IMG/VR virus record: IMGVR_UViG_3300021197_001384 | Length of the DNA: 64,000 nucleotides | Direction: 5' to 3' (one strand) | DNA from: an uncultured virus (IMG/VR IMGVR_UViG_3300021197_001384) | Lineage: Duplodnaviria; Heunggongvirae; Uroviricota; Caudoviricetes | Part shown: one piece after another, positions 23,662 to 61,820 of the stretch | How positions within the stretch are numbered: the first letter of the stretch is position 1 | Layout: each line of letters starts with the position of its first letter | Position numbers and translations under genes: made by a program | Notes under the pieces: generated by a model | The model's database searches: none | Seen by the model: only the letters and a program-made list of their open reading frames with translations | Told to the model about the DNA's origin: nothing

Positions 23662-26175
23662 TGCACTGCCGCTGGTGCTAATAGACCCAACTTCCCCGTT
23701 GGGATTGTAAAACCTCATTTGGGACGCTGCGCCAGTGGTAGAGCGTCCGATTCTTGCAAATGAGTTTGCTCGATCATAGCCAAATGCGTCATTGGTTCCG
23801 TCAGGCAGTGACATTGCGCCGATGATGACGTCGCCGCCAGATTTAAGCATCATTCTCTCGGTTCGAGTGCCTGCTGAGTTCTCTACAAAGGTTAAGTTAT
23901 TTTGTGCTCCTCCTCCACTTGGGTCTTGGAGCGAGGTCTCCCACCAATAACTTGGGTTAGTGGTGTAAAGACTTATGAAGTTCCGATAGTTCTGAGAACC
24001 GCTTCCTCCTTGGAATCGGGCCAATTCGGTAGCACCAGATACAGACCCTTTAAATACGTGTAGGGGTGCCGCTGGTGCCGCCGTCCCCACGCCGACGTTG
24101 CCGCTGGAGTCGATCCGCATTGTTTCAGCTCCCCCATCGCGAGAAAATCTCACGTAATCTGAAGAGGGGTTTATTTCCAGTGGATAATAAAGCGTCCCAG
24201 CCGTGTTCGTGACCCCAAAACGAAGGGGTTGATCGATATACCTGTGTCGAACGTAGCCCGCACCATTACGATTAAGGTTGATAGAGTCATCATTCCACAA
24301 AGCCCCAGTGCTTCTAAAAGTGCCATTTACATCTAGCTTGTAGGAAGGCGTCGTATCGTTGATGCCGACGTTGCCGCTTTGGCTGATTCGCATGGCTTCA
24401 CTGTCAAGTGAGCCGCCGCCTCCACCTGTGCGAAACGATATGGACCCAGTCCCAGCCGTTGCGCCCCATGAACGAATCCGGAAGTCGTTATTATTAAAAT
24501 CGAGACCGCCCGCACTTGTTTGATTAAGAGAAACTCCTCCCCGTGCAAGGACAGGACCATTTACATCGAGAGTTGACTTCCCCGTTCCGGCTGGGGCAGG
24601 TGCCGTCAATCCGATGCCGAGGCCAGTGGAGGTGAATGTAGCGACATCGCCAGTTCCGACGACTCCAACCTTGGTGCTACTCTGCGTGAGATTGAGTATG
24701 CGACCTGTGCCGACGTGGTCGTAAATCGAAAGACCAGCCGACCCAGCGTAAAGGCGGGTTTCGTTTGAAACGTCTAGACCAAAAAGACGCCCGAAAAAAT
24801 CAACTTGTGTGCTTGCACTCAGACTCGTCGCCGCCACCGTGCTCGGCGTCGTCGCCCCAATCGTCGTGCCGTCAATCGTCCCGCCGTTGATGTCCGCCGT
24901 CCCGATGCCGACGCTGCCATTCTCGATAGTCATGCTTTCGGTGGACAGCAGGCCGGAGTAGAACCTAAGGATATTCCCGACGATGGAACCATCGATGTAT
25001 TGACTCGTGCCACGATTGAAGAACTCGACGGCTCCAACGCCTGCTTGGGCACCAGCGTTCATCTCGATGCCCTCGTTGCCAGTGTTGGACACCACCAGCC
25101 GTGACATGGGATTCACACTGCCAATGCCAACGTTGCCTGCGGTAGTGATCCGCATGCGCTCATTCACTCCGTCGTTGGCCTTGAAGGTCAGGTCGGCTCC
25201 ACCCTCGATGGTGAAGATGTCGCTGACTCCATGCTTCAGGCGGATGCGTGGCTCAAAGCCAGCGCCCGCATCCTTGGACTCGATGCCAAGCGAACCACGG
25301 TTGGTGTCCACCACGCCAAACGTGTTGGCGGGAAAGATGGTGGTGCCCACGCCGACGGAACCAAACTCACCACCAAGGAGCAGGTTCGTGACTTCGTCCT
25401 GAGTGTAGTCGTAGGCAAAGATCCGGCCGATGCCTGCATTAAGGTCAGGATTGGCAATGACCACGGAGCTGCGGTTGGGGCCGGTGTTATTCGCTGCCTC
25501 GATCTCGGTGAACCACCCGACGTCCGACACGGCCGTGCCGATGGGGCCGGGATCCGTCAGGTCCAATGAGCCAGCCAAGGCTGTATTGATTCCCTGAAGA
25601 TGGTCGACCAGCAGGTTGCCGCTGGCCACGTAGTTGGTTGGCGAATATCCGATGGTGACGTTCTGGTCAGTCGGCAGGTTGAGTGGCTCCCACCTGATGT
25701 CACCATTGGCATCGAACCCGAGCACGTTGTTTGATCGATCATTGACCGAGAGCGGGTTGATCCCTTGGTCGGCGATGGGCAACCGGAGAGCACGCTCGAC
25801 ACGGTCTTCCACCTTTTGCAACTGCATCACGATCTTGTCGTAGCTGGCCTCGACGGTCTGCGACGGCAGCTGGCCATTGTAGGGGAAGGTGGATTCCTGA
25901 ATGACCGGAATGCCACGGGAGATCACCACGGTGTCACCAGCAATCCAGCCTGAACCTGCGACCTCAATGATGCCGTCGAACTGGCCTGCGGTGCAGCCGC
26001 CTGAGGAGGAGTTGACGGTGTAATCAACATTGATGAGCAGATCGGTGTCCACTCCAGCACGGCGACGGGTTACTCGAACCTCGGTGTCGTGGAAGTAGCA
26101 AAACGGAATCGTCAGCGGGCTAGCTGGATTCGCGATGAGGAAGGATTGCCATGAGGCTTCAGATACAACGGACAT
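23278..26175 (-). CDS. tail fibre: T7 gp17-like N-terminal anchor, GNVGIG modules, C-terminal peptidase S74 chaperone
   Basis: TIPFCYF..VDYTV..VVISR..E.SYDKIVM anchor; TSSDYRLKENV..GFIAHEV..LVPLLVGAVQEL chaperone. Confidence 0.85.
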   Translation of the reverse strand: MSVVSEASWQSFLIANPASPLTIPFCYFHDTEVRVTRRRAGVDTDLLINVDYTVNSSSGGCTAGQFDGIIEVAGSGWIAGDTVVISRGIPVIQESTFPYNGQLPSQTVEASYDKIVMQLQKVEDRVERALRLPIADQGINPLSVNDRSNNVLGFDANGDIRWEPLNLPTDQNVTIGYSPTNYVASGNLLVDHLQGINTALAGSLDLTDPGPIGTAVSDVGWFTEIEAANNTGPNRSSVVIANPDLNAGIGRIFAYDYTQDEVTNLLLGGEFGSVGVGTTIFPANTFGVVDTNRGSLGIESKDAGAGFEPRIRLKHGVSDIFTIEGGADLTFKANDGVNERMRITTAGNVGIGSVNPMSRLVVSNTGNEGIEMNAGAQAGVGAVEFFNRGTSQYIDGSIVGNILRFYSGLLSTESMTIENGSVGIGTADINGGTIDGTTIGATTPSTVAATSLSASTQVDFFGRLFGLDVSNETRLYAGSAGLSIYDHVGTGRILNLTQSSTKVGVVGTGDVATFTSTGLGIGLTAPAPAGTGKSTLDVNGPVLARGGVSLNQTSAGGLDFNNNDFRIRSWGATAGTGSISFRTGGGGGSLDSEAMRISQSGNVGINDTTPSYKLDVNGTFRSTGALWNDDSINLNRNGAGYVRHRYIDQPLRFGVTNTAGTLYYPLEINPSSDYVRFSRDGGAETMRIDSSGNVGVGTAAPAAPLHVFKGSVSGATELARFQGGSGSQNYRNFISLYTTNPSYWWETSLQDPSGGGAQNNLTFVENSAGTRTERMMLKSGGDVIIGAMSLPDGTNDAFGYDRANSFARIGRSTTGAASQMRFYNPNGEVGSISTSGSATAYNTSSDYRLKENVVPMSDSLQRIGNLKPSRFNFIADDSVVVDGFIAHEVEEVVPEAISGEKDAMRDEEYEVTPAVLDDDGNEVTPAVMGTRSVPEYQGIDQSKLVPLLVGAVQELTARLEALENN
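23829..24080. repeat. shared fibre block 2, copy of 60095-60346
   Basis: 252 bp with few substitutions, offset 36266. Confidence 0.9.
24384..24888. repeat. shared fibre block 3, copy of 60788-61292
   Basis: 505 bp with one mismatch seen (GSISF versus GSMSF), offset 36404. Confidence 0.95.
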
Positions 26176-26187: not shown

Positions 26188-29100
26188 TTAGAGTCTGATT
26201 GTTGGTGATGATTTTTGAGATTCTTGGCGACGACGTTCTGCGCCTCCACCGAAGTGGCCATACCAGAAGCCACCGACCACGGGAACGGTGCGCCACAGGC
26301 TGAGATTTCCGGGCTTGAACTCCTCGCCGCTAGTTGCGGCCTTCGCCATCTCGGAAACTCCCTTGGCGGGCTCGGTAAACCACGGCACGGGGGGGGCCAG
26401 ATAAAGGGCTATGAACTTGGAGGGATCATTCAGTCGATCCATCTGCTGGATGTGGTAGTTGGAGAGGCCACCGAGCTTGTAGATGTTATCGACAGCGGTC
26501 TCGGACAGATTCATCTCCCGGCCCATGAGCCAGTCCTTGAGCATGTCCACTGGGACTCCGATCAACCAGAAGAGGGCAGCGAGACGGAGCACATTGCCCA
26601 TGCCCTGAGCCCGTTCTGCTGGGGTCTTACCGAAGACCACCTTATTCATTCCTTCACGCCAGAAGGCGTTGAGCTGTTTGACCGTAAAGGTCTTCAGCAT
26701 GTAGACGATCCGGCCGTTGGGATTGCGTAAGTATGCCTCAGGAAACTCGGAAAGATTGATGGGCTGGTAGTCAGCCAAGGTGGAGTAGGCGAGGAACTGA
26801 ACGTCCTCGGTGAGGTTGCCCGCCTTGAGGTCTTCCATCACCTGAGCTGCCTGCTCTGGAGTGAACGATGCATCGAGCGTGGCTTGGGACTTGGTGTCCA
26901 GAGTGCCAGTTCGGGCCAGCTTCTCCAGCATGTTGATCTTCCCGTTCATCAGCGTCTCCTTGCCGATGCGGTCCATCCACTTCAGGCCAGTCAACGTGAA
27001 GACTTGATCGAGCACCTTGTGGGTGGAGTCCATCGATGCGAACTCAGCCGAATGGGTCTCGATGTTGAACTGGTCACGGGTGACCCGGGCATTGCCACCG
27101 ATCACATCTGCAGCGGTGGAAACGGTGTTGAAGAATCCGTTCTCGTAGATGCTAAACGCGAAGTCACCGAGCTGGGTGAGCGTGCTGGTCAACTGGCCCA
27201 TCGTGGTGATGTAGCCAATCGTCTTAGCCCACCGGACCATTTGTTCCATGACGCCTTGGTTGAACCGAGCCTCCAGCATGGCACGAACTTCTTCGGCTTG
27301 CCCGGGAGGGGCGTCTGCCAGCTCCTCTGCCACGTAGGCGCCGATGGACTGGTTGATGTCGGTGGTGGTGCCGAACGTCTCTGACGCATCGGTGATGTTG
27401 TCCAGAGTCACGTTGTGCTTCCCGAAGAACTGGGCACGACCCACGGCATCTGCCGACTTGTTGATGTGGCTGATAAGGGCAGTGAGACTGTCCTCGTAGA
27501 ACTCGGCTGCAGCTGGGGTGACGATCCCAGTGGTGCGCTGCTTGGTGGCCGAAGGACCGGAGGTGCGGATGGTCTTCTTGGAAGCAAGAAACTCGTTGAG
27601 GACTTCCTGCTTCTCCAGCTCTCCGAAGGTGCGGCCGTCTTCCTGCATGCGCTTCTGCGTCTTGCGTATTAGGGCATCCAGTTCGCCACCATACTCGGAC
27701 CCGTAGTAGTGATTCCAGAGGGCATCGAGATCCTTCACCTTTCGGGGGAAGTAGTTGGCGATGAAGCCGATCTCGTAACCTGAGTCGATCATGCGCTGCT
27801 TGATGTCAGCGAGCAGGGATTCGACTGGCTCGATGGTCAGGTTGAACTGGGCGAGGATAGCATCACGGGTCTCGGTATCGCCATTCATGAGGGCAAGGTT
27901 GAGCCGTTCGTAGACGGCCTTGTCCTTCTTGATGCCCTCAAGGCCATCAATAAAGGGCTTTACCCGATTCAGATCACTGTGCTGGTTGATGCCGATTCCC
28001 ATCTCCATGCGACGGAGCAGCTGGGCAATACGGGGACTGATCTTGAAAAGGCGTTCCGAGATGGGGACCGCGAGTTGAGCACCAACCCGGGCAAAGCCCA
28101 TGTTGGTGGTGGCCATGATCCGTTGCTGCGGAGTCATTGCAGCCTGTTGCTTCTGGATAACCGTGTCGTCGGTCAGGTTGCCGTGGGCCTTGAGTGCCTC
28201 CAGCTGGAACGTGATCTCCTGCTCTGCGTTCAGGGGAACGCCGGAGAGCTGGAAAGTCTGGTCTACGCTTGGGCTGAATGCTCCATCTGAGCTGCTGGAT
28301 CGAAGAGTAGGTCGTAAAGCTCCAAATCCGAAAGCTTCGTATCCAGCATCTTTTCGTAAGCTGGCCGAGCTGCTTTCAGTCTGTTCACGATCTCGGGATC
28401 GAGCCCACTCGGGAGCTGCGATTCCATCGCTGAGGATTTGTTTTCTAGCTTGGCTGGCATTGGAGGAACTGTTCCAAATTTGCGCATACTTGTCAACGAA
28501 CGCCTCGTCCCGCTTGGCCGCATCAGGAAAGAGCATTCTGACAGCCTCCCATGTGATCGACTGCATCTGGCGAGGGAGTAGTCCGCGCTTGGCTGCAGCA
28601 CGCTTGTATGCCTCAAGGTGAAGCCAGTAGGTGCCTGAGTTGTGGGGGCCACCAACGCCAGCTTTACCAAAGTTGAGATCCACCTGATAACCGCTTCCAC
28701 CCATCGGGAACAGTAGGTCTGCATTCACTGCGTGGGTGTCCATGGTCGCATCCCCGAACAGCGTGTTGGGTGCGATGATGTTGTTGTAGAAGTTGCGGAT
28801 CTTGTGCTCCAACCCGAGCTGGGTGGAGATGTTTGCAAGGCTTCCATCGGTGGCCACCTTGAGCGCCTTCACGATGGCTGAAGTATCCTGCCACACCATT
28901 TGCTTGATGCCTCCGTCGTTGTTGGTGCGGACCCCCATCGCAAACCCCTCAGGTGCCAGAACGTCGTGCATCAGCCCATGCTTCTGAGTGGACACAATAC
29001 GAGTCGCCCATGCCGCCAGCTCTTGGTTCCCTTCATCCCAGAGTTGCTGGATGGACTTACCACCAATTCCCTTGAGCAGTTTGGCTCGATTCTGCTTGTC

Positions 29101-32100
29101 CTTCTTATTTTTCGGAATGTTGGCAATCTGATCGATGGCTTTTTTGAAGTCCTTGCGGGTAACGGGAGTGTTCCGCTCGTTCGCGTAGACGTCGGCAAAG
29201 TTCATCGCCATCTGCACGTTCTGGAACCAGTCCTTCATCGGGCTGAATGCAGCAATGATCGCGCCCGACTGCTCCGGGGTCATTCCAAACTTGGATGACA
29301 TATCGTCCGCGATGATACGGGCACCGTCATACCAGTGTGTCGCACGGGACCGGAACTCCTCCGGGAACGCATCGTGCAACGCGAGCAGGTTATCCACCAT
29401 CATTCGGAGCAAGGCATTTTTGCGCTTCACTGGATCCGTGTGCTTCGTGATGAACGAAGGCATCTCATAGTCCACACCGACCATTTTATACACGCCCTTC
29501 TTCTTCTTCCGCTCTTGCTTCGTAAAGTGGGTCATCATCGCCATCTGCTTCTCCAGTGCTTGGGGAGTGACGTAGTCGATGCTGGTGTTGGTGGTCTGAG
29601 TGCGAGGGTTTGTCTTCGTGTCGGTTCCAGTGCCAACCCGTGAGGCATCGTATTCGTCGCTGGGCTTGGATACCTCCTCCATGCTGAAGGTAATGACTGA
29701 AGGCTTCACCGTCTTTTCCGAATCCTCGGCTACCTTGGCCTTGGCCTCGGCTACCTTGGCCTTGGCCTCGGCCTGAACTGCTGCTGCCGCCTCGTATTCT
29801 GACGCTTCGAAAGTCGGCGGCTTAGTTCCCTTGAGCACGCCTTCGGTGTCACGAACCATGAACACTACGTCAGGCTCGCCCATGGTGTCGTAGTTCCAGC
29901 CGTCTGGAGCGTATTCCCGAGAGAACTTAACCCGGGCGACCGACACGAACTTGAACTGTCCGTAGAGGTTCGGGAGGAAGCCGCCGATGTCGAATGCGTC
30001 CAGCGTTGCTGCATACTCGGATGCCTCTGCGAGCACTGCCTTCATCTTGGCGGTCGAGCCGGGCACCTTGTGGACGCTTTGCAGGTCACCGTAGCTGGTG
30101 ACCATCACCCCCCCGAGCTGATCCTCGGACTGGAAGAGCAGGTTTTCTGGGTCGAGGTAAGTCTTGAGATCGTAGACCGCTACCGCTGCGCCTTGCGGGT
30201 GCTCTTTGCGGGTCCGCTCGAGGGCTGCGTGGAAGCTACGTCCTCGGGCTTCAGGACTAACCCTGAACCGGCTGCGGCCATCCGCTCCCGAAGTGTCCTT
30301 TGGGGCATCGGGATCCGAAACAGTTGAGCTTTTTGCCGTGGCGTTAGCATCTGTCGATTGAGCAGGGATACTGCCTGCACTTGCAAGGCTAAAAGTGATG
30401 TTGGCCTTGGTCGGGTCAAACGTGCCACGGTTGCCGATGGCCGACTTGATCTGCGAAGGCTTGCTGATTGCGATCCAGAGATCGTCATTGAACTTGATGC
30501 CATCATGGCCTGCTCGCTTGGCCTTCCCGATCAGCTCACGGTTGGCCTTGTTGTAGTTCATGGCAGATGACCATTCCTTCTTATCGGCATCGGTCATCAC
30601 GTAGGGGTTCTCGATCTTGGCGTAGACGGGGAGCACCCGTGATGCCGTGTTCTTCGCCACCATGTCCCACGGGCCTGCTCCAACCCGCTCGTCACGGACC
30701 ATCCTCATGCTGTCGTTGTCGGTGGCGTATCCTGAAGCGACGACTGGATCACTGGTCAGCCAGACTCCCGTGTTCATCTTGAAGGACTTGAAGTCAGCGT
30801 CCTTCGAAGTGCCGTGATACATGACCTTCGGTTGGCCTCCCTCGTTGACCACAACGGAGTCTCCGAACCAGTTCTTGAAGGCATCGGTCTGGGTAGGCGG
30901 TGCAAGCTGGAAGGAATGACCAAGGCGAGAACTGTCGGTCCATCCTTCCTCCTCCATCATGCGTTGGGCTTGGACATCGAGCTGGGCATCGATCCGAGCT
31001 TTGGCTGTTGCAACCTGTTCGGCTTCCTTGAGGGCAACGGCATTGGCTTCGCGTTCCATCTGCGACTGCACTGCCATCTGCACCTGAGCTGCCTTGGCAT
31101 CGAGTGCCACCTGTTCAGCGAGGGCATCTGGATCTCCCAGTGCCTGACGCATCCAGCTCTCCAGCTTCGGATCCAGCTTCCCATCCCGCATGAGCTTCTT
31201 CATCTTGGCCGTTCCCTTGAGCATGGACCGCAGTGAGTCTCCAAGGCTCTTGAGCCACCTGCCAACCTTGGATGCAACGTCCACCCCAAGGATGGTCTTG
31301 CGCTTTGATAGGGCGTAGTCGACCAGAGTGGCCGAGAACCACTCAGTATTGGCCCGTGCTACGTTTTTTTGGTCCGCATTGGGGTCAGCCTCCCCCTTGG
31401 CCTGATAGAAGGCTCTACGGGCTTTTGTGACCTCATCCTGAGAAAACTGTTTAAGCTCGATTCCCTGCTTCAACCAGCCCTCGCCCACTTCTTCGATGAC
31501 GGTGGTGGGATTGGAATTGCTGGCCAAGCGCACTGCGATCTGCAGCAGGTCGTTCTTGCCCATGACTACTTGGTTGGAGCCTTTGATCGTGACCTTGGCG
31601 GGGTCCATGCCTTCAGCCAGCTGGCCAAGGTTGGTGGCGACCTCAATCGCATTGTCCATCTCAGCCTGCGTGATCTCTCCAGCCGCAACCATGTCAACCA
31701 GTCGGGCATTCTGGGCCTGCTCCACAGTGAGGTTCTCACCATACCGGCCTTGCAGCTCACGCAGCACTGACCCAACGGCATCTCCCTCGGCCTGTTTGTT
31801 CTTGGCCGCACGCTTCTCCCGGGAAACCCAGTTGGAGTATCGCCTCCACAGGTCAGCCTGACCCGGGTCAGCCATGTTGAAGATGATCGGTTTGCCATCC
31901 TCGGTGATAATTGCCGGAGCCCCATTGACCTCACCGATCTTGCGACCAGCGGAGTCGGAGGGACCAAGCTCCTCAAAGAGAGCCTTGGCCGTATCCTCTT
32001 GGTAACGGGCGTAAGCGTCACGATCACCATTTGCTGCATCCAGCACTGTTTGGCCCATGCTTGGATCGGGGGATCCAGCTAAGATCTCTTCGTCGGTGTA

Positions 32101-53173: not shown

Positions 53174-53550
53174 GTGCCTTGAAGCCCCGCAAGCGTGGCC
53201 GTCCCTTTGGGACATCCAAGCCCGAGCAACGCAAGACGCTCAGGCGGATGTGGCTTTCCCCCCGGGCTGAGGCTGCAGTGTCCGTCCAGCAGGAAATGCT
53301 GCGTGCCAGCCTGCGGGTGAGGGCGAGCTTCGGTCAGGCTTTTGAGCTGATCGCCATCGCGCAAAGCGAAGGGACCACTCCGCTGGATGTGATGCGCGGT
53401 TTGATAAAGAAGTATGGCCGAAAGCAGATGACTGTGCTGAAATATCTAAATCGACTCAACGATGACTTAGTGGAGCCCGAGGAAGATTCCGATGAGGCGC
53501 CGCTGACGAGTGAAGAGAAAATCAATTTCGAGGATAACGGGTCACTCTGA
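53170..53550 (+). CDS. putative DNA-binding regulator
   Basis: AT-hook-like RKRGRP N-terminus. Confidence 0.55.
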   Translation: MSALKPRKRGRPFGTSKPEQRKTLRRMWLSPRAEAAVSVQQEMLRASLRVRASFGQAFELIAIAQSEGTTPLDVMRGLIKKYGRKQMTVLKYLNRLNDDLVEPEEDSDEAPLTSEEKINFEDNGSL

Positions 53551-53590
53551 TTCGCCCTCAAAACCAAAGACCAAAAAGAAAGATAAAAAA

Positions 53591-54283
53591 ATGAGCTTAA
53601 TCGCTAAAGAATCCGGAGGTTCCGCCTCCTTTGATCCAGTTGCCGCAGGAATGCACCCAGCCCGATGCGTCGGTGTGGTGGATCTGGGCACTCAAGAAAG
53701 TTACGACAAGGCATTTGCGCCGAAGCGCCAAGTGTTGATCACATGGGAGATCCCATCAGAGCGCATCGACATCGATGAGGACGGCAAGACCGTGTCCAAA
53801 CCGAGGTTCATCTCCAACACCTACACGCTGTCGCTGAACGGAATGTCGAACCTGCGCAAGACGCTCGATAGCTGGCGTGGTCGGGCGTTCACGGCCGAGG
53901 AGTTGGAAGGCTGGGATCTGTTCAACATCCTTTCGGCGCCCTGCCTGTTGAACGTGACGCACAAGTCGAGCAAAGATGGGCAGAAGACCTACGCCAACGT
54001 GACCTCGGTGAACCCGTTGCCGAAGGGCATGGACTGCGGCCAGCAGGAATCGGATACGATGAGTTGGTCGATTGATGACCAGCCTGACTGGAAGAGCACT
54101 GCGCTGGAACTGCCGACGAACGTGCCTGAGTGGGTCAGTAAGAAGATCGCGCAGAGCGAGGAATACGTGCAAAGCCATCTGCCGACCGAAGCTCGCAAGA
54201 AGGAGCCCAATCACCTGCAGGACGCCAAGCCTGCCTTCGATGTGAGCACCGGAAGCGACGACGAGGACGAGCCGCCCTTCTGA
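53591..54283 (+). CDS. putative ssDNA-binding protein
   Basis: GMHPARCVGVVDLGTQ..SNLRK.L.SWRG..YANV and acidic tail DDEDEPPF. Confidence 0.65.
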   Translation: MSLIAKESGGSASFDPVAAGMHPARCVGVVDLGTQESYDKAFAPKRQVLITWEIPSERIDIDEDGKTVSKPRFISNTYTLSLNGMSNLRKTLDSWRGRAFTAEELEGWDLFNILSAPCLLNVTHKSSKDGQKTYANVTSVNPLPKGMDCGQQESDTMSWSIDDQPDWKSTALELPTNVPEWVSKKIAQSEEYVQSHLPTEARKKEPNHLQDAKPAFDVSTGSDDEDEPPF

Positions 54284-54307
54284 TCTCGTCTGATCCCTGA
54301 ACCAACA

Positions 54308-54338
54308 GCCCCGCCTCCTTGGATGGAAGCGGGGTTTT
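54308..54338 (+). terminator. probable intrinsic terminator
   Basis: CCCCGC/GCGGGG stem followed by TTTT. Confidence 0.5.
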
Positions 54339-54356
54339 CGGGTGATGAATAACAAT

Positions 54357-54896
54357 ATGAAATCAGAAAACGAAGAAGTCTTCCGGCCCATTGCTGGCTA
54401 TGAAGATCTCTACCTAATCTCCTGCTCCGGTCGAGTTCAATCGTTACCGAGATGGGTCGTCTGCAATGGCGTTATGGCCCTCAGGGATGGACGGATCTTG
54501 AAGGGAAGCTCACATCCTGATCGATACAGGATAGTCGGCCTCTGGCGTGACGGAGTTAGGTGGACAAGTTACATTCACCGACTGGTGGCCCAAGCGTTCC
54601 TGAGTAATCCCGATGGCAAGCCGCAAGTGAACCACATCGATGGAGACAAGGCCAATAACCGGATGGAAAATCTGGAGTGGGTCACTGACCTTGAGAATAA
54701 GCGACATGCCATGGAGACTGGGCTGACAATAAAGGGCGAGGACCACGGTAACTCCAAGCTCACGGAGGAGGAGGTCCTTTACATTCGGAGCAATCCCGAC
54801 GGGCTCACTCAGCGTGAGCTGGCCACCAAGCTGGAAGTCTCCCAATCCGTGATCTGCAACATCCAGCTCGGCAAGACATGGGGGCACGTTCAATGA
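54357..54896 (+). CDS. NUMOD4-HNH homing endonuclease
   Basis: PIAGYEDLY.IS..GRV.S; HRLVAQAF..QVNHIDGDKANN..NLEWVT; C-terminal HTH. Confidence 0.9.
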   Translation: MKSENEEVFRPIAGYEDLYLISCSGRVQSLPRWVVCNGVMALRDGRILKGSSHPDRYRIVGLWRDGVRWTSYIHRLVAQAFLSNPDGKPQVNHIDGDKANNRMENLEWVTDLENKRHAMETGLTIKGEDHGNSKLTEEEVLYIRSNPDGLTQRELATKLEVSQSVICNIQLGKTWGHVQ

Positions 54897-55117
54897 GCCG
54901 AGCGCATCTCGCCGCCGTCACCCTGACCGTCACTTTCTGTGGCATCGTGCCGAAGGGAGTCACGGCAGGTGGTCCCAAGGCTTGGCTCAAGCAGCGGGTC
55001 CGGCACATGAATTTGGAGATCGAAGGCTTCGTCCAAGTGGACCGAGTAGCCGAGATCTCCGTCAACCCAGAGCCGGTCGAACTGCCACCAGCTCATCAAC
55101 TCAACCCAGAAAAATAA
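54893..55117 (+). CDS. hypothetical protein
   Basis: ATGA-coupled ORF. Confidence 0.5.
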   Translation: MSRAHLAAVTLTVTFCGIVPKGVTAGGPKAWLKQRVRHMNLEIEGFVQVDRVAEISVNPEPVELPPAHQLNPEK

Positions 55118-55122
55118 GCACC

Positions 55123-55632
55123 ATGCACATCATCAAAGTCAGTCATTCCCGAAAGAGCATCTCCGTCACCTTCACCGTCGAAGACGAGAAGCGAGTCATC
55201 GTCAGTCACGACAACCCATTGCCGTCCTTCGCGAAGGCGTTCCACCCATTGCCCAAGGTAGCCTGTGGGCTGCTGGAGCTTCCGGATTCCTACGCCGATG
55301 GCATGAAGATCACTGGCATCCAGATCCAGACCAAGGGTGGGAATGAGCACGTCATCCTGACTGGCACCAAGGATCTCCCTGATTCCAGTCAGCTCTTCAG
55401 GTTCTCAACTCCTCCCCGCTTGCTTGAGCAGCCGGTGGAGGAGGGGAAATACTCTCCCCCGATCAGCGACAAGCAGGCTGACCTGATTGCCGATGCGCTC
55501 CATGAGGTGGCCAAGTATGCTCGCGGCGAGCGAGCGCAGGGCCAACTGGATCTGGAGGACGACGACGACAAGTCGGAGGCCACCAAGGCTGCTGCTGATT
55601 CCGAAGGCCAAGAGGTCATGGCAGGAGTCTGA
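55123..55632 (+). CDS. hypothetical protein
   Basis: 169-aa ORF with YARGERAQGQL tail. Confidence 0.65.
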   Translation: MHIIKVSHSRKSISVTFTVEDEKRVIVSHDNPLPSFAKAFHPLPKVACGLLELPDSYADGMKITGIQIQTKGGNEHVILTGTKDLPDSSQLFRFSTPPRLLEQPVEEGKYSPPISDKQADLIADALHEVAKYARGERAQGQLDLEDDDDKSEATKAAADSEGQEVMAGV

Positions 55633-55698
55633 GTTCAGTGCCTGCCGGTGGGCCTAAGCACCGGCACCAATTTCACCCAAACAACTGAAAGGAAAATC

Positions 55699-56166
55699 AT
55701 GAAGACAACGATAGGAGAACATATGGCCAAGGCCGTGGTCGCAGACTACGCCAAGGGCAAGCGATACAACGAGGCGCAGCTGGCCAAGAGACTGGACGAG
55801 CTGGTCATGCAATACCGAGCGGTGGAGGAGGCCCCCAAGGTAAAGAGCATCTGGGACGTGAGCTCTCTCGACATCTACAACGCCTACCCTCGCAGGGTAG
55901 CGAAGACGGCCGCACTGAAGGCGATTGGCAAGGCGATGATGGGCTGGCCTCATGATATGCTGCTGGAGCGCACTGAGGCGTTCAAGGAAGCCACGGACAA
56001 GTGGCCTGAGGGGGACCGCAAGTTCATCCCGCACCCGAGCACGTGGTTCAACAACGAGGGGTTCGACGAGGATCCCAAGGAGTGGGTCCGCAAGAGCGAC
56101 GAGCAACTGAAGCAGGAGCGCCGTGAGGCCAAGGCGAGTGAACCCACCAACTACGAGGTCTTCTGA
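55699..56166 (+). CDS. replisome organizer/initiator-like protein
   Basis: YNAYPRRVAK..A.KA..FIPHPSTWFN..F.D motif directly before a DnaC-like ATPase. Confidence 0.7.
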   Translation: MKTTIGEHMAKAVVADYAKGKRYNEAQLAKRLDELVMQYRAVEEAPKVKSIWDVSSLDIYNAYPRRVAKTAALKAIGKAMMGWPHDMLLERTEAFKEATDKWPEGDRKFIPHPSTWFNNEGFDEDPKEWVRKSDEQLKQERREAKASEPTNYEVF

Positions 56167-56972
56167 TGAATATCCCTGACAACGTGATTCCCTTTGCTGA
56201 CATTGGATTGGATGAGTTCGGGGGCATGAGCCCCCAGCAGATCGGAACGATCCCAGCCGATGAGAACTGGTCCCCCCTGAAGGAGGAGATCGAGGTGACC
56301 TGCCGAGTCTGCGAGCGGGAGAAGTTCCGAGCGGTTCGATTTCTTGCCGGTAAGATGGCCTGCCCTAGCTGCTGCGATGCCCATGAGCTGGAGGATTTGA
56401 AGAACCAGTGCAGGGTGGCGTGGGAGCGGCTTGCTCCGTCCATGTTTCGGGAGACCGATGTGAAGCATCCTGACTTCCCGAAGGGGATCTGGAAGGAGCT
56501 GAAGGCCAGTTGGGATCTCAACGAGAGTTTGGTGCTCTACGGCCCGACTGGTGCAGCGAAGACCCGGGTGGCCATGCTGCTGCTGCAGTGGGCAATGTTC
56601 AAAGGAAAGACCGTGGACGCGATCTGGCCGGAAGAACTGGTGGAGTTTGCCAAGGGCCGTGATCGTCTGAAGAAGATCCAGAGCCTTGGTTCCAACAACG
56701 TGCTGCTGCTCGATGATGCTCTGCTGACTGGTGCGGCCGATGAACGGGTGGCCAGCTTCTGTAAGGACATTATAGATTTTTCCCAGCGCCATGGGAACTC
56801 CATCATCATCACCACGCAGGTGGGTGGCGAAGCCTACAAGCAAGCTAGTGACAAGTGGGAGAACGCCACGAAGGCCGACAGGGAGCGCATTGAGGCCCTG
56901 CTCAGGCGCATTCGGCAGGTGGGCAGAGTGATCCCCTTCGTGCAGCCTGACAAAGACGAGGAGAGCTTCTAA
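56166..56972 (+). CDS. DnaC/IstB-like AAA+ helicase loader
   Basis: Two CxxC motifs, Walker A GPTGAAKT, Walker B LLLDD, IITTQ. Confidence 0.8.
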   Translation: MNIPDNVIPFADIGLDEFGGMSPQQIGTIPADENWSPLKEEIEVTCRVCEREKFRAVRFLAGKMACPSCCDAHELEDLKNQCRVAWERLAPSMFRETDVKHPDFPKGIWKELKASWDLNESLVLYGPTGAAKTRVAMLLLQWAMFKGKTVDAIWPEELVEFAKGRDRLKKIQSLGSNNVLLLDDALLTGAADERVASFCKDIIDFSQRHGNSIIITTQVGGEAYKQASDKWENATKADRERIEALLRRIRQVGRVIPFVQPDKDEESF

Positions 56973-56973
56973 T

Positions 56974-57246
56974 ATGAAAATAAAGGAGATTCAGCATGAA
57001 CCTCTGCGCTACTGGGCATCGAGCAGCACCCGCAACATGACCTACGTGGTCGATCTTTCGGAGAACGAGGGCAATGGGTCTTGCTCCTGCGCTGACTTCA
57101 TCACCCGAAGGAACCAAGCCATCCAGCAGGGGGAGGAGTTGTTCACCCGCAAGACCAGCTGCAAGCACCTGCTTGCGGTGCGCAAGCACTTCCTGAAGAC
57201 CACCCTGCGCGAGATGGCGAGGATCATCAACAAGGGAGGACGGTGA
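56974..57246 (+). CDS. SWIM zinc-finger protein
   Basis: YVVDL..CSCADF..CKHL. Confidence 0.75.
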   Translation: MKIKEIQHEPLRYWASSSTRNMTYVVDLSENEGNGSCSCADFITRRNQAIQQGEELFTRKTSCKHLLAVRKHFLKTTLREMARIINKGGR

Positions 57247-57599
57247 CCTACGATCACGATGGGAAGCTGATCCGGTTTGACCTGAACGGGAAGCGGGTGA
57301 GCGGCACGGTGGTGAAAACCCATGACCGTCGCCATGTCACCGTCCGTGGCAGGTCAGGCAAGACCGTGAAGGTGGACATGCTCGACCAGCATGGCGTGGT
57401 TGCCTTGCCCAGTGGGTTGGAGGTCACCACCATTTGGAATGAGGATCACCCACCGAATGGAGTGCCTGCTGATCGGGCTGAGTTTCATCGTGCTGTCGAT
57501 GATCCTCCTGCGCCTGCTGTGGCTCCTGCTCCAACTCTAAAGCCTGCGCGTCCTGCTCAGGCACCAACAACAACAACTGAGCAAATGATATTCTTATGA
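57243..57599 (+). CDS. hypothetical protein
   Basis: GTGA-coupled ORF with SH3-like N-terminus and Pro/Ala tail. Confidence 0.55.
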   Translation: MTYDHDGKLIRFDLNGKRVSGTVVKTHDRRHVTVRGRSGKTVKVDMLDQHGVVALPSGLEVTTIWNEDHPPNGVPADRAEFHRAVDDPPAPAVAPAPTLKPARPAQAPTTTTEQMIFL

Positions 57600-58084
57600 A
57601 TCACACCAACACACAGGCCAAGATCCTGAGCCTCGACTTAGCAACCACCACGGGGTGGGCCTTCATTGCCAACGGTGTCGTGGATCATGGAGCCCAGAGC
57701 TTCAAGCTCGGCACCAAGAAGGCAGACCCGAAGCATGCTGGGCTGCCCTTCGCCCAGTTCGACCACTGGATTGCCAATCGCATCAGGGACTACAAGCCTG
57801 AGCTGATCGTCTACGAGGAAGTCCGCAGGTGGATGAGCAGCAGTGCTGCATGGGCCTTCTGTGGCTTCCGTGCCACGATGCTAATGCATGCTGCTCGAAA
57901 CGGCATCGAGTGCATCGGCTACAGTCCGACCACTATCAAGAAGTTCGCCACTGGTAGCGGTGCTGCGAACAAGAAGAAGATGATCGAGACGGCCAAGATG
58001 CGTTGGCCTGACGAGCAGTTCGCTTCGGACGATGCGGTGGATGCGTTGTTCCTGCTGCATCTCCATCTGGCAGGAGCCCCATAA
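57596..58084 (+). CDS. ruvC: RuvC-like Holliday junction resolvase
   Basis: ILSLDLATTTGWA, IVYEE, PTTIKKFATGSG.A.K..M, DDAVDAL. Confidence 0.88.
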   Translation: MNHTNTQAKILSLDLATTTGWAFIANGVVDHGAQSFKLGTKKADPKHAGLPFAQFDHWIANRIRDYKPELIVYEEVRRWMSSSAAWAFCGFRATMLMHAARNGIECIGYSPTTIKKFATGSGAANKKKMIETAKMRWPDEQFASDDAVDALFLLHLHLAGAP

Positions 58085-58229
58085 GCCGTGGTCCTGTCCA
58101 TTTCTAGGCCATTTCCAGCCCATACTGGGGTCTAGGTATAGGCTGGACACTAGAACCGCCTTAATTTACGTCCGTTACCCAGAGAAGGCTATAGCGAGGA
58201 AACGTCCGAGTAGAATACGACGCTAACGG

Positions 58230-58277
58230 GTTTTCTACCCCCGTCACCTGTTACCGCAGGGGCGGGGGTTTTTCTTT
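58230..58277. terminator. terminator between convergent operons
   Basis: ACCCCCGTC.CCTG/CAGGGGCGGGGGT stem followed by a T-rich tract. Confidence 0.7.
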
Positions 58278-58280
58278 GGA

Positions 58281-58448
58281 TTACTTCGAATCCTTGGGAG
58301 GATTCGGCTCAGGTTGGGGAACTTTGGAATCGGTCACCACATTGGTCAGCACTTCCCGCGCAGCGGAAAAGGCTTGGTGATCTTGGCCGGAACCAACGAA
58401 CTTTATTTGAACTTGAGCGAGGATTTGTAGTGCTTCTTGAGGGCTCAT
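58281..58448 (-). CDS. small protein (55 aa, not in ORF track) similar to 23078-23239
   Basis: MSPQEALQILAQVQIKFVGSGQDHQAFSAAREVL.. Confidence 0.55.
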   Translation of the reverse strand: MSPQEALQILAQVQIKFVGSGQDHQAFSAAREVLTNVVTDSKVPQPEPNPPKDSK

Positions 58449-58493
58449 CCAAAACGTATGAACAATCCCACAGAATTAAGCAACTCGGATCCG

Positions 58494-58586
58494 TTAGGGC
58501 TGAGCTTCAAGCGCAGCGATGGACGTGGAATCGCATTGATCGCCGTGGTTGTCAGATGCGACGACGAATCGGCGTGGGGATTTCAT
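58494..58586 (-). pseudogene. 30-codon remnant starting like a metallophosphoesterase
   Basis: MKSPRRFVVASDNHGDQCD..IAALEAQP. Confidence 0.4.
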
Positions 58587-58598
58587 AAGCGGTGACGG

Positions 58599-58823
58599 TC
58601 AGCCGAGACGCTGCCAGATCCAATGACCGACGACAGTTGCGCAAGCAGCGATCCCAGAAACGACGCCGCGCTGACGCCATTTCTCATTTTCGAGCTTAGT
58701 CACGCGACCGTTAGTGATCTTCGCTTGCTCTTCCGTGCGCTCCGTTGTCGCGCTGATCGTGTCGAGCCTTTGCAAGATGCGAGAGAACATTGCGTCGGTG
58801 CTGTTCGGGTCGTAATCGGACAT
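58599..58823 (-). CDS. coiled-coil plus C-terminal TM protein (lysis-associated)
   Basis: TNGRVTKLE motif followed by a TM helix. Confidence 0.6.
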   Translation of the reverse strand: MSDYDPNSTDAMFSRILQRLDTISATTERTEEQAKITNGRVTKLENEKWRQRGVVSGIAACATVVGHWIWQRLG

Positions 58824-58831
58824 CGTGCGGA

Positions 58832-59107
58832 TCAATCTTTTTTGATGGTTTCAAGCTCCGCACCTTTGTAATTCGCAGTTCGCGAAAAGCCTAAGATGGT
58901 TGTGGTGTGCGTGAGCGAGTCGGCCTTTCGGACTACACTGCCGTCGTCCTGCGTGGTTTTCTCGATCCCGGTTGCGTGGATTTCCGACGAGAAGCCCGGC
59001 GCTGCAATGGTTTGATGCACCTCCTCGGCTGCGTAGCGCGGAACGGCAGAGCATCCGGCGAACGTGATCGCTGAAAGGGTAATGATAATGCTTTGGATTG
59101 CTTTCAT
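58832..59107 (-). CDS. lipoprotein
   Basis: Signal peptide with lipobox FAGC. Confidence 0.65.
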   Translation of the reverse strand: MKAIQSIIITLSAITFAGCSAVPRYAAEEVHQTIAAPGFSSEIHATGIEKTTQDDGSVVRKADSLTHTTTILGFSRTANYKGAELETIKKD

Positions 59108-59114: not shown

Positions 59115-59504
59115 TTATTTGTCACCGCGTTTGAATTTCGGACCGCCAACTACAACAGCGGCGACCATTATTTTGCGACGAATGCGCGAGACGCCCAGCG
59201 CTTCCATTGCTTCGCCGAAGATTGATGCAGCTTTCCGATAGTCGGTTGTTTTGGGCGACTCATCGCAAAGCCAGTCGTGCACGATTGCTGCCTTTCCGTG
59301 CCGCCCGACCGGAGAAACGATGCGATGAAAGAAGCGAGGCACGCTCGCAAAGTCGGTTCGATAGCCTGCTGGCACGGTGATGATCCTGCCGCCAGACGAC
59401 TCAAAGCGAATCGCGTGGATCAGCTCGAACGGTCGTTCATCGAGGTCCAAATTGTGGACCTTGAGATTGTAACTTCCAACGAACTTATCCACGCGGTCTT
59501 GCAT
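59115..59504 (-). CDS. DUF1353-family protein
   Basis: VPAGYRTDFASVPR..AAIVHDWL..F.EAM..GV. Confidence 0.85.
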   Translation of the reverse strand: MQDRVDKFVGSYNLKVHNLDLDERPFELIHAIRFESSGGRIITVPAGYRTDFASVPRFFHRIVSPVGRHGKAAIVHDWLCDESPKTTDYRKAASIFGEAMEALGVSRIRRKIMVAAVVVGGPKFKRGDK

Positions 59505-59543: not shown

Positions 59544-61820
59544 TTAGTTATTTTCCAATGCCTCAAGACGGGCCGTCAGTTCCTGTAGTGCACCGACGAG
59601 CAGAGGCACTAGCTTGGATTGGTCGATTCCTTGGTATTCTGGCACCGACCTAGTGCCCATGACGGCAGGAGTGACTTCGTTTCCGTCGTCATCTAATACC
59701 GCTGGAGTGACCTCGTATTCCTCGTCACGCATTGCATTTTTTTCGCCGGATATTGCTTCCGGAACGACCTCTTGAACTTCGTGAGCGATAAATCCATCCA
59801 CGATCCTCTTGTCATCAGAGATGAAGTTGAAGCGGCTGGGCTTGAGCTTGCCGATGCGTTGCAGCGAATCCGACATTGGCACCACGTTTTCCTTCAAACG
59901 ATAGTCCGAAGAGGTGTTGTATGCCGTGGAGGTCTGGTTGGTGGTAATCGTGCCGCAGGTCTGCGTGGCACTTATAAAGATGGCTTGGGTCTGCACCCCA
60001 GCCCCCATCTTCCCGAAGCGGACGTATTTGCTGGCGTTATCCCACGCAAACCCACCGACTCCAACGGTGGGCATTGTCATTCCGCTGAAGATGGCGTCGC
60101 CGCCAGATTTAAGCGTCATTCTCTCGGTTCGAGTGCCTGCTGAGTTCTCTACAAAGGTTAGGTTATTTTGTGATCCTCCTCCACTTGGGTCTTGGAGCGA
60201 GGTCTCCCACCAATAACTTGGGTTAGTGGTGTAAAGACTTATGAAGTTCCGATAGTTCTCAGAACCGCTTCCTCCTTGGAATCGGGCCAATTCGGTAGCA
60301 CCAGATACAGAACCTTTAAATACGTGTAGGGGTGCCGCCGGTGCCGTGATCCCAATGCCGACCTCGCCAGTAGCCAAAACTCGCATTCTCTCGACACCAT
60401 CCTTGTCGTTAAGCTCAAGGATTCGATCACCCGAATTGCTACCAGCACTAATTTCTAATCCGTTGCCGCTGGCTGTTGAGTTTGAAATCAGTCCGACAAA
60501 ATCGGTGGTCGCGCCACTTACGGTGAACAACCGTGAAGGTGTAGACGTCCCCACGCCGACGTTGCCGCTCGTCGCGAGCGTCATTTGCGGAAACGAATTG
60601 TTCGTTCCGAAGATCAGCGGATGGTTAGTGGTAGTCCCGATAGCAAACGAGTTGGTCAGCGTGGTGCTGCCGTAAATGATGCCGTTGACCGTTCCGTCGT
60701 TGACCGCGATGCCGCCATTGGTGGCAGTTTGGACGCTTAGCTTGGTGCTCGGTCCCGTCGTCCCCACGCCGACGTTGCCTGCGGCGGTGATTCGCATGGC
60801 TTCACTGTCAAGTGAGCCGCCGCCTCCACCTGTGCGAAACGACATGGACCCAGTCCCAGCCGTTGCGCCCCATGAACGAATCCGGAAGTCGTTATTATTA
60901 AAATCGAGACCGCCCGCACTTGTTTGATTAAGAGAAACTCCTCCCCGTGCAAGGACAGGACCATTTACATCGAGAGTTGACTTCCCCGTTCCGGCTGGGG
61001 CAGGTGCCGTCAATCCGATGCCGAGGCCAGTGGAGGTGAATGTAGCGACATCGCCAGTTCCGACGACTCCAACCTTGGTGCTACTCTGCGTGAGATTGAG
61101 TATGCGACCTGTGCCGACGTGGTCGTAAATCGAAAGACCAGCCGACCCAGCGTAAAGGCGGGTTTCGTTTGAAACGTCTAGACCAAAAAGACGCCCGAAA
61201 AAATCAACTTGTGTGCTTGCACTCAGACTCGTCGCCGCCACCGTGCTCGGCGTCGTCGCCCCAATCGTCGTGCCGTCAATCGTCCCGCCGTTAATGTCTG
61301 CCGTGTCAGCAACCAGCGAGTCGATGTTCGCCGTGCCGTCGAGGTAGAGGTTGCGCCACTCGTGGCCCGTGCGACCAAGGTCGTAGGTGTTGTCGGTGGC
61401 TGGCGTAAACTCAGATGCAATCCGAGCGTTGAACGTCACCGTGTCACTATTGCTGCTACCGAGAGTCGTGTTGTTGTTAATCGACAATGCATCTGCCGTA
61501 AGCAGGTTGGCATCACTGACTGTAACCCCAGAATTTTGTATGACCTTGCCGGTTGTGCTATCAAAACGAGCAACAGCATTATCCGTAGATGACGCTGGTC
61601 CAACTACATCACCAGCACCATTAGACGTCCATTCCACATCTGTAGCCGTGCCATTCAAAGAAAGCACTTTATTTGCATTTCCCGTATAATCAGGAAGCAA
61701 ATTAACACGGGCATCAGACGCATTGTCAGCCCCTGTTCCACCGTTAACAACGGGCAATACGCCAGAAATATTTTCCAGGGAGTCTGGTGTATCCAGAATC
61801 AGGGTCTTAAAAACGTCCAT
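59544..61820 (-). CDS. tail fibre: phage-A-type N-terminus, GNVGVG modules, peptidase S74 chaperone
   Basis: GDVVGPASSTDNAVARFD, TYDLG..WRNLYLDG, TSSDYRLKENV. Confidence 0.85.
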   Translation of the reverse strand: MDVFKTLILDTPDSLENISGVLPVVNGGTGADNASDARVNLLPDYTGNANKVLSLNGTATDVEWTSNGAGDVVGPASSTDNAVARFDSTTGKVIQNSGVTVSDANLLTADALSINNNTTLGSSNSDTVTFNARIASEFTPATDNTYDLGRTGHEWRNLYLDGTANIDSLVADTADINGGTIDGTTIGATTPSTVAATSLSASTQVDFFGRLFGLDVSNETRLYAGSAGLSIYDHVGTGRILNLTQSSTKVGVVGTGDVATFTSTGLGIGLTAPAPAGTGKSTLDVNGPVLARGGVSLNQTSAGGLDFNNNDFRIRSWGATAGTGSMSFRTGGGGGSLDSEAMRITAAGNVGVGTTGPSTKLSVQTATNGGIAVNDGTVNGIIYGSTTLTNSFAIGTTTNHPLIFGTNNSFPQMTLATSGNVGVGTSTPSRLFTVSGATTDFVGLISNSTASGNGLEISAGSNSGDRILELNDKDGVERMRVLATGEVGIGITAPAAPLHVFKGSVSGATELARFQGGSGSENYRNFISLYTTNPSYWWETSLQDPSGGGSQNNLTFVENSAGTRTERMTLKSGGDAIFSGMTMPTVGVGGFAWDNASKYVRFGKMGAGVQTQAIFISATQTCGTITTNQTSTAYNTSSDYRLKENVVPMSDSLQRIGKLKPSRFNFISDDKRIVDGFIAHEVQEVVPEAISGEKNAMRDEEYEVTPAVLDDDGNEVTPAVMGTRSVPEYQGIDQSKLVPLLVGALQELTARLEALENN

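Follow-up and report, generated by a model that had tools for sequence, protein, structure and literature searches.

The window analysed here, a stretch of 64,000 nucleotides that comprises bases 1-64000 of a metagenome contig of 70,251 bp, reads as one phage written inside another, and the question it raises is whether this arrangement ever existed as a molecule or was composed by an assembler. The first-pass annotation had offered a recombination cointegrate or, at least as likely, a misassembly. The latter half of that statement has gained ground, being favoured by a stand-alone copy of the inner phage, by colinear relatives of the outer phage and by an outer-phage-like repeat in samples with almost none of the inner phage. 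We therefore regard the nested two-phage arrangement as most probably an assembly (loop) artefact, i.e., an assembler path through a tail-fibre segment common to both phages. A cointegrate that truly existed, the product of a single crossover between two unrelated lytic podophages in their common fibre segment at co-infection, appears an unlikely source of the contig. The recent exchange of a distal fibre module between the two unrelated phages is real, and is an event of a known kind.

Two unrelated podophages in one contig

The inner genome (phage B, a complete-looking, HTVC010P-like podophage) is enclosed between two repeat copies, and the unrelated outer genome (phage A, a podophage with an SU10-type capsid and a GC content of 0.45-0.52) flanks these copies on the outside (Table 1). 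The composition shifts described in the first-pass annotation were recovered, with a GC content of 0.45 in the A late module and 0.46 in A-right vs 0.57 across the whole of B, and tetranucleotide correlations of 0.82 for A late with A-right and 0.94 for B late with B early, as against ~0 for A with B. Its two unrelated virion gene sets were equally evident, as a Phage_capsid_2/Head-tail_con/tail tubular set in B and an SU10-type capsid set in A, and it was also right that no integrase is present, as no integrase or recombinase family was detected in 92 ORF translations (44 + 48, Pfam) or with PHROGs. The paired SSB-like and holin-like genes that it listed alongside were not found, as no ORF gave such a match in Pfam or PHROGs at E <= 1e-3.

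Table 1 Features of the two phages and of the fibre genes at their joints (window coordinates).
Feature	Position	Strand	Description
Phage A early/replication module	1..11656	+	exonuclease, DnaB-like helicase, HNH endonuclease, PolB-type exonuclease subunit (PHROGs, Pfam)
Phage A late module, left	11682..23260	-	ORFs of 1171, 541, 609, 110, 257, 724, 109, 84, 147 and 60 aa
Fibre gene 1 as written	23278..26175	-	965 aa
Blocks 1 + 2, fibre-tip homology, copy 1	23276..24096	-	88% / 94% to copy 2
C1 of fibre gene 1	23278-24363	-	GC3 0.52, Peptidase_S74 chaperone
R of fibre gene 1 = repeat copy 1 (block 3)	24364..24900	-	24440-24888 identical to copy 2
N_B of fibre gene 1	24901-26175	-	T7-like N-terminal adaptor, GC3 0.72
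Unique part of phage B	24889..60843	.	35,955 bp; with one 449-bp repeat, 36,404-bp unit
Phage B packaging and virion operon	26188..49291	-	PHROGs, Pfam
B internal virion proteins	within 26188..49291	-	170, 554 and 2384 aa
B beta-helix protein; B scaffold-like gene	within 26188..49291	-	702 aa (beta-helix protein)
B tail tubular B	35949-38279	-	within packaging/virion operon
B tail tubular A	38281-38898	-	within packaging/virion operon
B major capsid protein	38991-39896	-	Phage_capsid_2; within packaging/virion operon
B portal	41819-43525	-	Head-tail_con; within packaging/virion operon
B large terminase	44129-45730	-	within packaging/virion operon
Phage B early/replication operon	51040..58871	+	DUF932, HNH endonuclease, replication initiator-like, DnaC/IstB-like loader, RuvC-like resolvase
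B DUF1353 gene	59115..59504	-	directly downstream of fibre tip C2; PHROGs label tail assembly chaperone
Fibre gene 2 as written	59544..61820	-	758 aa
C2 of fibre gene 2	59544-60767	-	GC3 0.60, Peptidase_S74 chaperone
R of fibre gene 2 = repeat copy 2 (block 3)	60768..61304	-	60844-61292 identical to copy 1
N_A of fibre gene 2	61305-61820	-	GC3 0.49
Phage A late module, right	61822..64000	-	ORFs of 126, 104, 285 and 102 aa and start of SU10-type major capsid protein

Phage B has the T7-like structural gene order and the genome size (~35 kb) of HTVC010P-type/T7-like podophages, and its tail tubular B protein shares 28-38% amino acid identity with podophages of 34-43 kb, the HTVC010P type being the best match. 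The claim that the inner unit carries a complete gene set is plausible from its size and gene order, while no small terminase or lysis gene was identified in it. Close relatives of B were found neither in IMG/VR (searched with N_B, the C-terminus of the 2384-aa protein and the portal) nor in GTDB genomes (portal), and megablast of 25 kb of B returned no cultured phage.

In phage A, the SU10-type major capsid protein starts at 63694 and ends past the window; A-right continues to contig base 70,251, where a gene is truncated whose product has 537 aa in most of the full-length relatives. One closed relative of A measures about 38.2 kb, and megablast of A-left gave no cultured-phage match. The change in GC content at 11.66 kb, from 0.515 in A-early to 0.451 in A-late, was considered as a second chimeric joint and rejected; the early/late joint is natural, because the independent IMG/VR contig L083 crosses it at 96-97% nucleotide identity.

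For a wider view of the A lineage we used the best 25 of 80 IMG/VR loci, ranked by the number of window genes matched. Seven of these 25 (L001, L006, L007, L011, L012, L013 and L056) carry a single fibre gene and no insert, the fibre gene being flanked by homologues of A-right and A-left at up to 98% amino acid identity, and only about 1.8-3.1 kb separates their homologues of the 126-aa and 147-aa proteins. Excision of the inner unit restores a phage A that is colinear with these seven independent loci, and a B-like gene set occurred in none of the 25.

A shared segment in two hybrid fibre genes

The two joints lie in two minus-strand fibre genes that have three direct blocks in common. Blocks 1 (23276-23661 vs 59542-59927) and 2 (23804-24096 vs 60070-60362) are 88% and 94% identical, respectively, and block 3, the best of the three, spans 537 bp at 98.5% identity and contains an exact core of 449 bp, in agreement with the roughly 450 bp of perfect identity first noted at both junctions. 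Mismatches between the block 3 copies cluster just beyond this exact stretch. The copies are spaced 36,404 bp apart, and one crossover in block 3 does yield, as had been proposed, a circle of that size together with a colinear phage A.

Both fibre ORFs as written are intact, all four combinations of N- and C-terminal parts are in frame, and PF13884 was detected at both C-termini with 38.0 and 42.6 bits against a gathering cut-off of 22 (Pfam). The true fibre of A would be N_A-R-C1 (712 aa) and that of B N_B-R-C2 (1011 aa). The distal module of the B fibre, i.e., R plus the tip with its S74 chaperone, is closely related to that of A; either the A lineage or a common pool is its probable recent source, a direction of transfer that we infer.

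The suggestion that each written fibre joins the N-terminus of one phage to the C-terminus of the other is borne out by independent fibres. Three independent Logan proteins (P0005-P0007) share 98-99% identity with N_A and 97% with R over its residues 1-96, and their C-termini are 87% identical to C1 vs 52% to C2. P0004, with a B-like N-terminus (50%), has a C-terminus that is 92% identical to C2 vs 78% to C1. Judged from these protein sequences, independent fibres appear to have the parental pairings only, with C1-type tips on N_A and C2-type tips on B-like N-termini. The two hybrid fibres (P0001 and P0003) are recorded only from NCBI and JGI/IMG, where the longest contig carrying them has 70,251 bp.

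Phage B on a contig of its own and the repeat in other samples

Phage B is also present, at 100% identity, on another contig, of 36,209 bp (source ENA), on which P0125 matches the 2384-aa protein of B in 2367/2367 residues. Its length equals 35,955 + 2 x 127, that is, the unique part of B extended on either side by one k-mer (k = 127) of the repeat, and P0002, which is identical to residues 326-758 of fibre 2, begins at the first start codon available within the contig edge. From this length and the one truncated gene call, the contig would end in the repeat on both sides. A de Bruijn edge whose two ends lie in the repeat would have this length, which favours misassembly; by itself, the contig shows that one assembly left the repeat unresolved and does not show that B was unlinked. 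Three possible truncated gene calls for C1, of 371, 443 and 340 aa, had no exact match in the protein collection. A 40-mer from the exact repeat occurred in no IMG/VR contig and, among metagenome records, only in the window's own contig, twice, and it led to no independent joint of the A-A, B-B or A-B kind; an end 127 bp within the repeat would leave the 36,209-bp contig without this 40-mer.

No sequencing run contained at least half of the sampled words of 19400-29399, the best share being 0.21. Four estuary runs, which are samples other than the source, were inspected as k=31 contigs, which are unable to bridge a 449-bp repeat. A-left and the repeat were covered to about 24900 in all four, and B (25172-34499) was at or near zero apart from weak cover at 28507-30507 and 32509-33842, a scarcity that says nothing about the source sample. 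Contigs in X4 and X3 depart from the reference at 24900, and their letters match 61305-61334, on the side of the A N-terminus, at 26/30 and 21/30 positions by eye; counted in the same way, the letters of X4 past 24900 match 24901-24930 of B at just 9/30.

Assembly loop or recombinant molecule

A de Bruijn-type assembler with a loop-walking heuristic is assumed for the 70,251-bp contig. The sample would have held two separate podophages, A from an SU10-capsid lineage with genomes of about 38 kb and B as a 36.4-kb HTVC010P-like phage, whose reads would close into a circle. The identical 449-bp stretch of their fibre genes would form a single de Bruijn edge that A enters and leaves and on which B loops, and an assembler walking this loop once would write A-left, repeat, B, repeat and A-right. 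That order is the exact path of one loop walk, and the contig matches this prediction to the base (24,439 + 449 + 35,955 + 449 + 8,959 = 70,251); each joint has an identical repeat that exceeds the k-mer in length. As the whole genome of B is nested between two repeat copies, the contig resembles an integrated element. Roux et al. 2017 (PMC5610896) document chimeric contigs that arise from shared regions, at <5% of viral contigs of at least 10 kb in simulations, and the COBRA paper (PMC10914622), in which regions shared between genomes were simulated, states that de Bruijn assemblers generally break at multiple graph paths. The anatomy of the contig, the colinear A relatives, the stand-alone B contig and the natural pairings of fibre N- and C-termini together make the artefact our preferred reading. 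The repeat was nevertheless crossed twice while the contig broke elsewhere in A, and the assembler could have had read-pair support for the joins that it wrote.

The sequence by itself fits a real cointegrate equally well, in which a crossover in the 449-537 bp of common fibre segment joined a circular or concatemeric B into A within a co-infected cell: the anatomy is of the Campbell type, with an insert of unit length between direct homologous copies at the two joints and with hybrid ORFs that are intact and in frame; a RuvC-like resolvase is among the gene products of B; and the 88-94% identity of the fibre tips otherwise points to an earlier module exchange and probably to a common host. 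The joint molecule would, however, measure about 75 kb, twice the size of either genome (A relative about 38.2 kb, B relatives 34-43 kb), and should be unpackageable by phages with relatives of these sizes, so a cointegrate would be rare and intracellular and is not expected to dominate an assembly. An identical B was moreover assembled separately, broken at the repeat, the hybrid fibre proteins are recorded only from the 70,251-bp record and independent fibres have parental pairings only. Evidence specific to a cointegrate was not found, and a literature search on phage-phage cointegrates gave, judged from its results alone, nothing on a molecule of this kind; we hold this origin to be improbable. 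The proposal that the fibre alleles were merely similar and were merged into one edge by bubble removal, which would make the 449-bp identity partly artefactual and the join artefactual too, seems very improbable. It accords with the clustering of copy differences just outside the exact stretch, and a contig that crosses one graph edge twice must show identical copies; the length of the 36,209-bp contig, however, fits branch points at the exact ends of the 449-bp stretch, and the 97% identity to R over 96 residues in Logan proteins from other runs indicates that near-identical copies circulate. A whole replicon between direct repeats could also suggest that B, as a phage-in-phage mobile element, is temperate or parasitic and uses the fibre gene of A as a target for site-specific integration. 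Against this stand the full virion module of B's own, the absence of integrase, recombinase and transposase families from the scanned ORFs (Pfam, 92 ORFs; PHROGs) and the lack of an insert in all seven colinear A relatives (0/7, among the best 25 of 80 IMG/VR loci). Nor was a B-like element at this fibre position detected in any of the 80 IMG/VR loci, and the repeat 40-mer was absent from all other metagenome records. The supposed att site consists of 537 bp of coding homology with ~1 kb more at 88-94%, and this fibre-gene homology, in place of short att-type repeats at the ends of B, runs on to the gene ends, so we consider such an element extremely improbable.

Implications

Taken at face value, the contig would stand in databases as a 'phage' of 70 kb that has two capsids and two hybrid fibres, a record that would mislead taxonomy, host prediction and studies of fibre modules. 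It is better handled as two genomes, an incomplete phage A of 33.8 kb and a probably complete phage B of 36.4 kb. The nearly identical fibre stretch and the related tips in unrelated, co-occurring aquatic podophages imply that the two have a host in common, or hosts that overlap, and that a module was exchanged recently. A genuine join would give a rare and direct look at the recombination intermediate that underlies fibre-module exchanges, and a true cointegrate would be a caught intermediate of a cross-lineage, host-range (fibre) module exchange with two intact, reciprocal hybrid fibre genes.

Comparison with known systems

Phage B shares with HTVC010P (NC_020481.1) the gene order large terminase, portal, scaffold, major capsid protein, tail tubular A/B, internal proteins and fibre, and its unit of 36,404 bp is similar in size to HTVC010P and related podophages of 34-36 kb; it differs from them in a tail tubular B protein of only 31-38% amino acid identity and in its GC content of 0.57. 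In Campbell-type integration, a single homologous crossover leaves direct repeats that flank a unit-length insert, and one further crossover restores both parents. The present contig likewise has direct homologous copies around a unit-length B, and one crossover restores A and B, but the partners here are apparently lytic podophages and the product would be too large to package.

Distal tail-fibre modules are swapped between unrelated phages, as in the fibres of P2, Mu, P1, lambda and the T-even phages. The same mosaicism is seen in A and B, whose N-terminal anchors are unrelated (a T7-like adaptor in B and a different 172-aa domain in A) and whose closely related distal parts end in a Peptidase_S74 intramolecular chaperone; what sets this pair apart is only the core of 449 bp, identical and very recent, that an SU10-capsid lineage has in common with an HTVC010P-like one. 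The preferred reading as a loop artefact has its counterpart in the viral-metagenome chimeras of Roux et al. (PMC5610896), in which two genomes are likewise joined in one contig at a highly similar region, and the second assembly of B breaks at the common fibre region in the manner that the COBRA paper (PMC10914622) describes for shared regions. Compared with such chimeras, the contig departs in being a full loop, with a whole genome nested between the repeat copies, instead of an end-to-end switch.

Two podophage genomes joined at a shared fibre segment

A 40-mer from the fibre repeat matched a single metagenome record, UEXM01000175.1 (70,251 bp), at two places, and bases 1-64000 of this record are the window (two retrieved stretches were compared and matched exactly). 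No terminal overlap was found in the 70,251-bp contig, and its right end truncates a gene that encodes 537 aa in most full-length relatives. The first-pass annotation had proposed direct repeats at both junctions of one phage nested in another, and we recovered them as three direct blocks common to the two fibre genes (see table), the copies of block 3 lying 36,404 bp apart and containing an exact identity of 449 bp. Homology between the two fibre proteins begins at a common motif and continues through to the C-terminus (417 identical residues over 587 aligned positions); the N-termini are unrelated, and both proteins carry a C-terminal Peptidase_S74 intramolecular chaperone domain. In fibre 2, the 60 residues that lead up to the shared segment (residues 112-172) are 69-88% identical in ~40 IMG/VR contigs, many of which otherwise have only a distant terminase in common with the window; judged by sequence, this stretch looks like a conserved linker where fibre modules may be exchanged.

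Coordinates and properties of features in the window (N, R and C: N-terminal, repeat and C-terminal fibre segments; A: outer phage; B: inner phage)
Feature	Position	Strand	Size or identity	GC3
Fibre gene 1	23278-26175	minus	965 aa
N_B	24901-26175	minus		0.72
C1	23278-24363	minus		0.52
Fibre gene 2	59544-61820	minus	758 aa
N_A	61305-61820	minus		0.49
C2	59544-60767	minus		0.60
R (block 3)	24364-24900; 60768-61304		98.5%	0.54
Block 1	23276-23661; 59542-59927		88%
Block 2	23804-24096; 60070-60362		94%
Exact identity	24440-24888; 60844-61292		449 bp
B structural genes (2384-aa protein, tail tubular B, portal)				0.70-0.71
4 of 5 A genes measured				0.35-0.43
Fibre 2 residues 112-172	61305-61487
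54-nt period repeats, 609-aa gene (A)	17512-17772	minus	63-75%
285-aa protein (A)	62472-63329
2384-aa protein (B)	26188-33342	minus	2384 aa
702-aa protein (B)	46693-48801	minus	702 aa
63-nt direct repeat (B)	51031-51093; 51373-51435		95%

The compositional shift noted earlier is real, the GC content being 0.45 in the late genes of A, 0.46 in its right part and 0.57 throughout the inner block, while tetranucleotide profiles of the late and right parts of A correlate at 0.82, those of the two B halves at 0.94, and A shows ~0 correlation with B. Within A, the early (1-11656, GC 0.515) and late (11682-23260, GC 0.451) genes correlate at only r = 0.30, yet an independent contig with 96-97% nucleotide identity confirms their joint.

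Fibre pairings and stand-alone relatives

The claim that the written fibres pair the N-terminus of one phage with the C-terminus of the other is borne out by independent proteins. Three 626-aa Logan proteins (P0005-P0007) are 98-99% identical to N_A and 97% identical to the first 96 residues of R, and in the C-terminus they share 87% identity with C1 versus only 52% with C2, whereas P0004 (1183 aa) combines a B-like N-terminus (50%) with a C-terminus 92% identical to C2 versus 78% to C1. In nature, then, N_A is followed by C1 and B-type anchors by C2, the opposite of the contig. The hybrid fibres themselves (P0001 and P0003) are recorded from NCBI and JGI/IMG only, on two contigs each (longest 70,251 bp), which we take to be two filings of one record.

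Phage B was also found on its own. A protein search with fibre 2 returned P0002 (433 aa), 100% identical to residues 326-758 and located on a 36,209-bp contig, and a cluster look-up returned P0125, identical to the 2384-aa protein at 2367 of 2367 residues, on a contig also of 36,209 bp (source ENA). Among 10 matches in all, only the written 965-aa fibre had both N_B and R at 100% identity, so the fibre is cut on the 36,209-bp contig; the first start codon below 61013 is residue 326 of fibre 2, as expected if the contig edge lies between 60845 and 61012. Since 36,209 equals the 35,955 bp of unique B sequence (24889-60843) plus 2 × 127, this contig would be a de Bruijn edge (k = 127) whose two ends each reach one k-mer into the repeat. 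Assemblers of the de Bruijn type usually break where several paths through the graph are open, shared regions between genomes being one case simulated in PMC10914622.

For phage A, 80 IMG/VR loci were retrieved and the best 25 by window genes matched were examined. Seven (L001, L006, L007, L011, L012, L013 and L056; at most 98% amino acid identity) are colinear, running from A-right genes through one variable fibre gene to A-left genes, with a gap of only ~1.8-3.1 kb between the homologues of the 126-aa and 147-aa proteins. Seven more (L002-L005, L008-L010) stop in or just past the fibre N-terminal region and are uninformative, and the other 11 matched only part of a fibre and, weakly, one or two other genes (terminase at 27-30%, HNH endonuclease, part of the 724-aa protein). 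A B-like gene set occurred in none of these best 25 of 80 loci.

No sequencing run searched for 19400-29399 contained half of it or more (best share 0.21). We compared contigs of four estuary runs, which represent other samples and relatives rather than the source, with 14500-34499 at 90% likeness. A-left and the repeat were covered to ~24900 in all four (word depth <1 to ~106), and B was almost uncovered over 25172-34499, with weak cover at 28507-30507 and 32509-33842. The C1-specific stretch 24091-24343 was matched at ~90-92% by contigs (X1 record 8, X4 record 32). Past 24900, contigs of X4 and X3 match 61305-61334 at 26/30 and 21/30, and X4 matches the B side (24901-24930) at 9/30 (by-eye counts). 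Repeat-bearing A-type fibres therefore exist, in these other samples and relatives, where B is absent or rare.

Origin of the nested arrangement

Assemblers that use path-extension heuristics may walk a loop once when the shared edge on which it sits has a single entrance and a single exit. The present repeat would have this topology and was left unresolved by another assembly, and chimeric contigs caused by shared regions are a documented error, making up <5% of viral contigs of at least 10 kb in the simulations of PMC5610896; the nested arrangement is thus quite probably an assembly artefact. A real cointegrate of A and B would start from the same two parents and yield an identical sequence. 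The assembler passed the repeat twice yet broke elsewhere in A, which might reflect read-pair support for the written joins, but at ~75 kb a cointegrate would be twice the genome of either lineage and possible only as a rare intracellular form, and we regard it as unlikely. A variant of the artefact, in which allele merging inflated the repeat identity itself, we find very unlikely. A site-specific phage-in-phage element is extremely improbable, given that no integrase or recombinase family was detected in 92 ORF translations (Pfam) or in PHROGs scans, in agreement with the first-pass annotation.

If the nested arrangement is such an artefact, two unrelated co-occurring podophages still carry an identical 449-bp stretch of fibre, along with S74-capped tips that are close relatives of each other. 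Exchange of receptor-binding modules across lineages is well known, and on sequence grounds we interpret the shared segment as a recent exchange of this kind. GC3 drops sharply within the B fibre at 24900 and changes smoothly along that of A, which suggests a better fit of the distal module to the A lineage.

Gene content and affinities

Phage A encodes an SU10-type major capsid protein, its own structural genes, a DnaB-like helicase and a PolB-type exonuclease. A 38,415-bp contig of a relative closes on itself (195 bp at 98%), so a complete A is ~38 kb, of which 33.8 kb lies in the 70,251-bp contig; the exact major capsid protein of A is recorded from 73 contigs, and the lineage is therefore common. 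The 609-aa gene holds four copies of an 18-aa repeat, and its homologue in the 38.4-kb relative holds the 195-bp end overlap. A variant of the 285-aa protein occurs on 29 contigs, the longest of which (59,390 bp), well above ~38 kb, may be another joined contig.

The major capsid protein of B is, as proposed, unrelated (Phage_capsid_2 type), while no family match backs the SSB-like and holin-like pairs also proposed. B, made up of 24889-60843 and a single copy of the repeat, further encodes a large terminase, a Head-tail_con portal, a scaffold-like gene, tail tubular A and B, internal virion proteins of 170, 554 and 2384 aa, a fibre with a T7-like N-terminus, a DUF1353 gene and a plus-strand replication operon. 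An ART-PolyVal ADP-ribosyltransferase domain (59.7 bits) occupies residues 834-975 of the 2384-aa protein and DUF7178 residues 1306-1404; the protein, in whose gene weak cover by other runs falls (near 29174-29840), looks like a polyvalent protein ejected with DNA. Upstream of the terminase and apart from the fibre gene, the 702-aa protein has a right-handed beta-helix (Pfam Beta_helix) and a weak tail spike PHROG match, and may be a second receptor-binding protein or depolymerase. At the start of the early operon, each copy of the 63-nt repeat ends in ATG and precedes one of two consecutive plus-strand genes; the repeat may be a duplicated leader or promoter region. In tail tubular B, identity to podophages of 34-43 kb is 28-38%, the best match being of the Pelagibacter HTVC010P type, and the gene order of B is that of HTVC010P.
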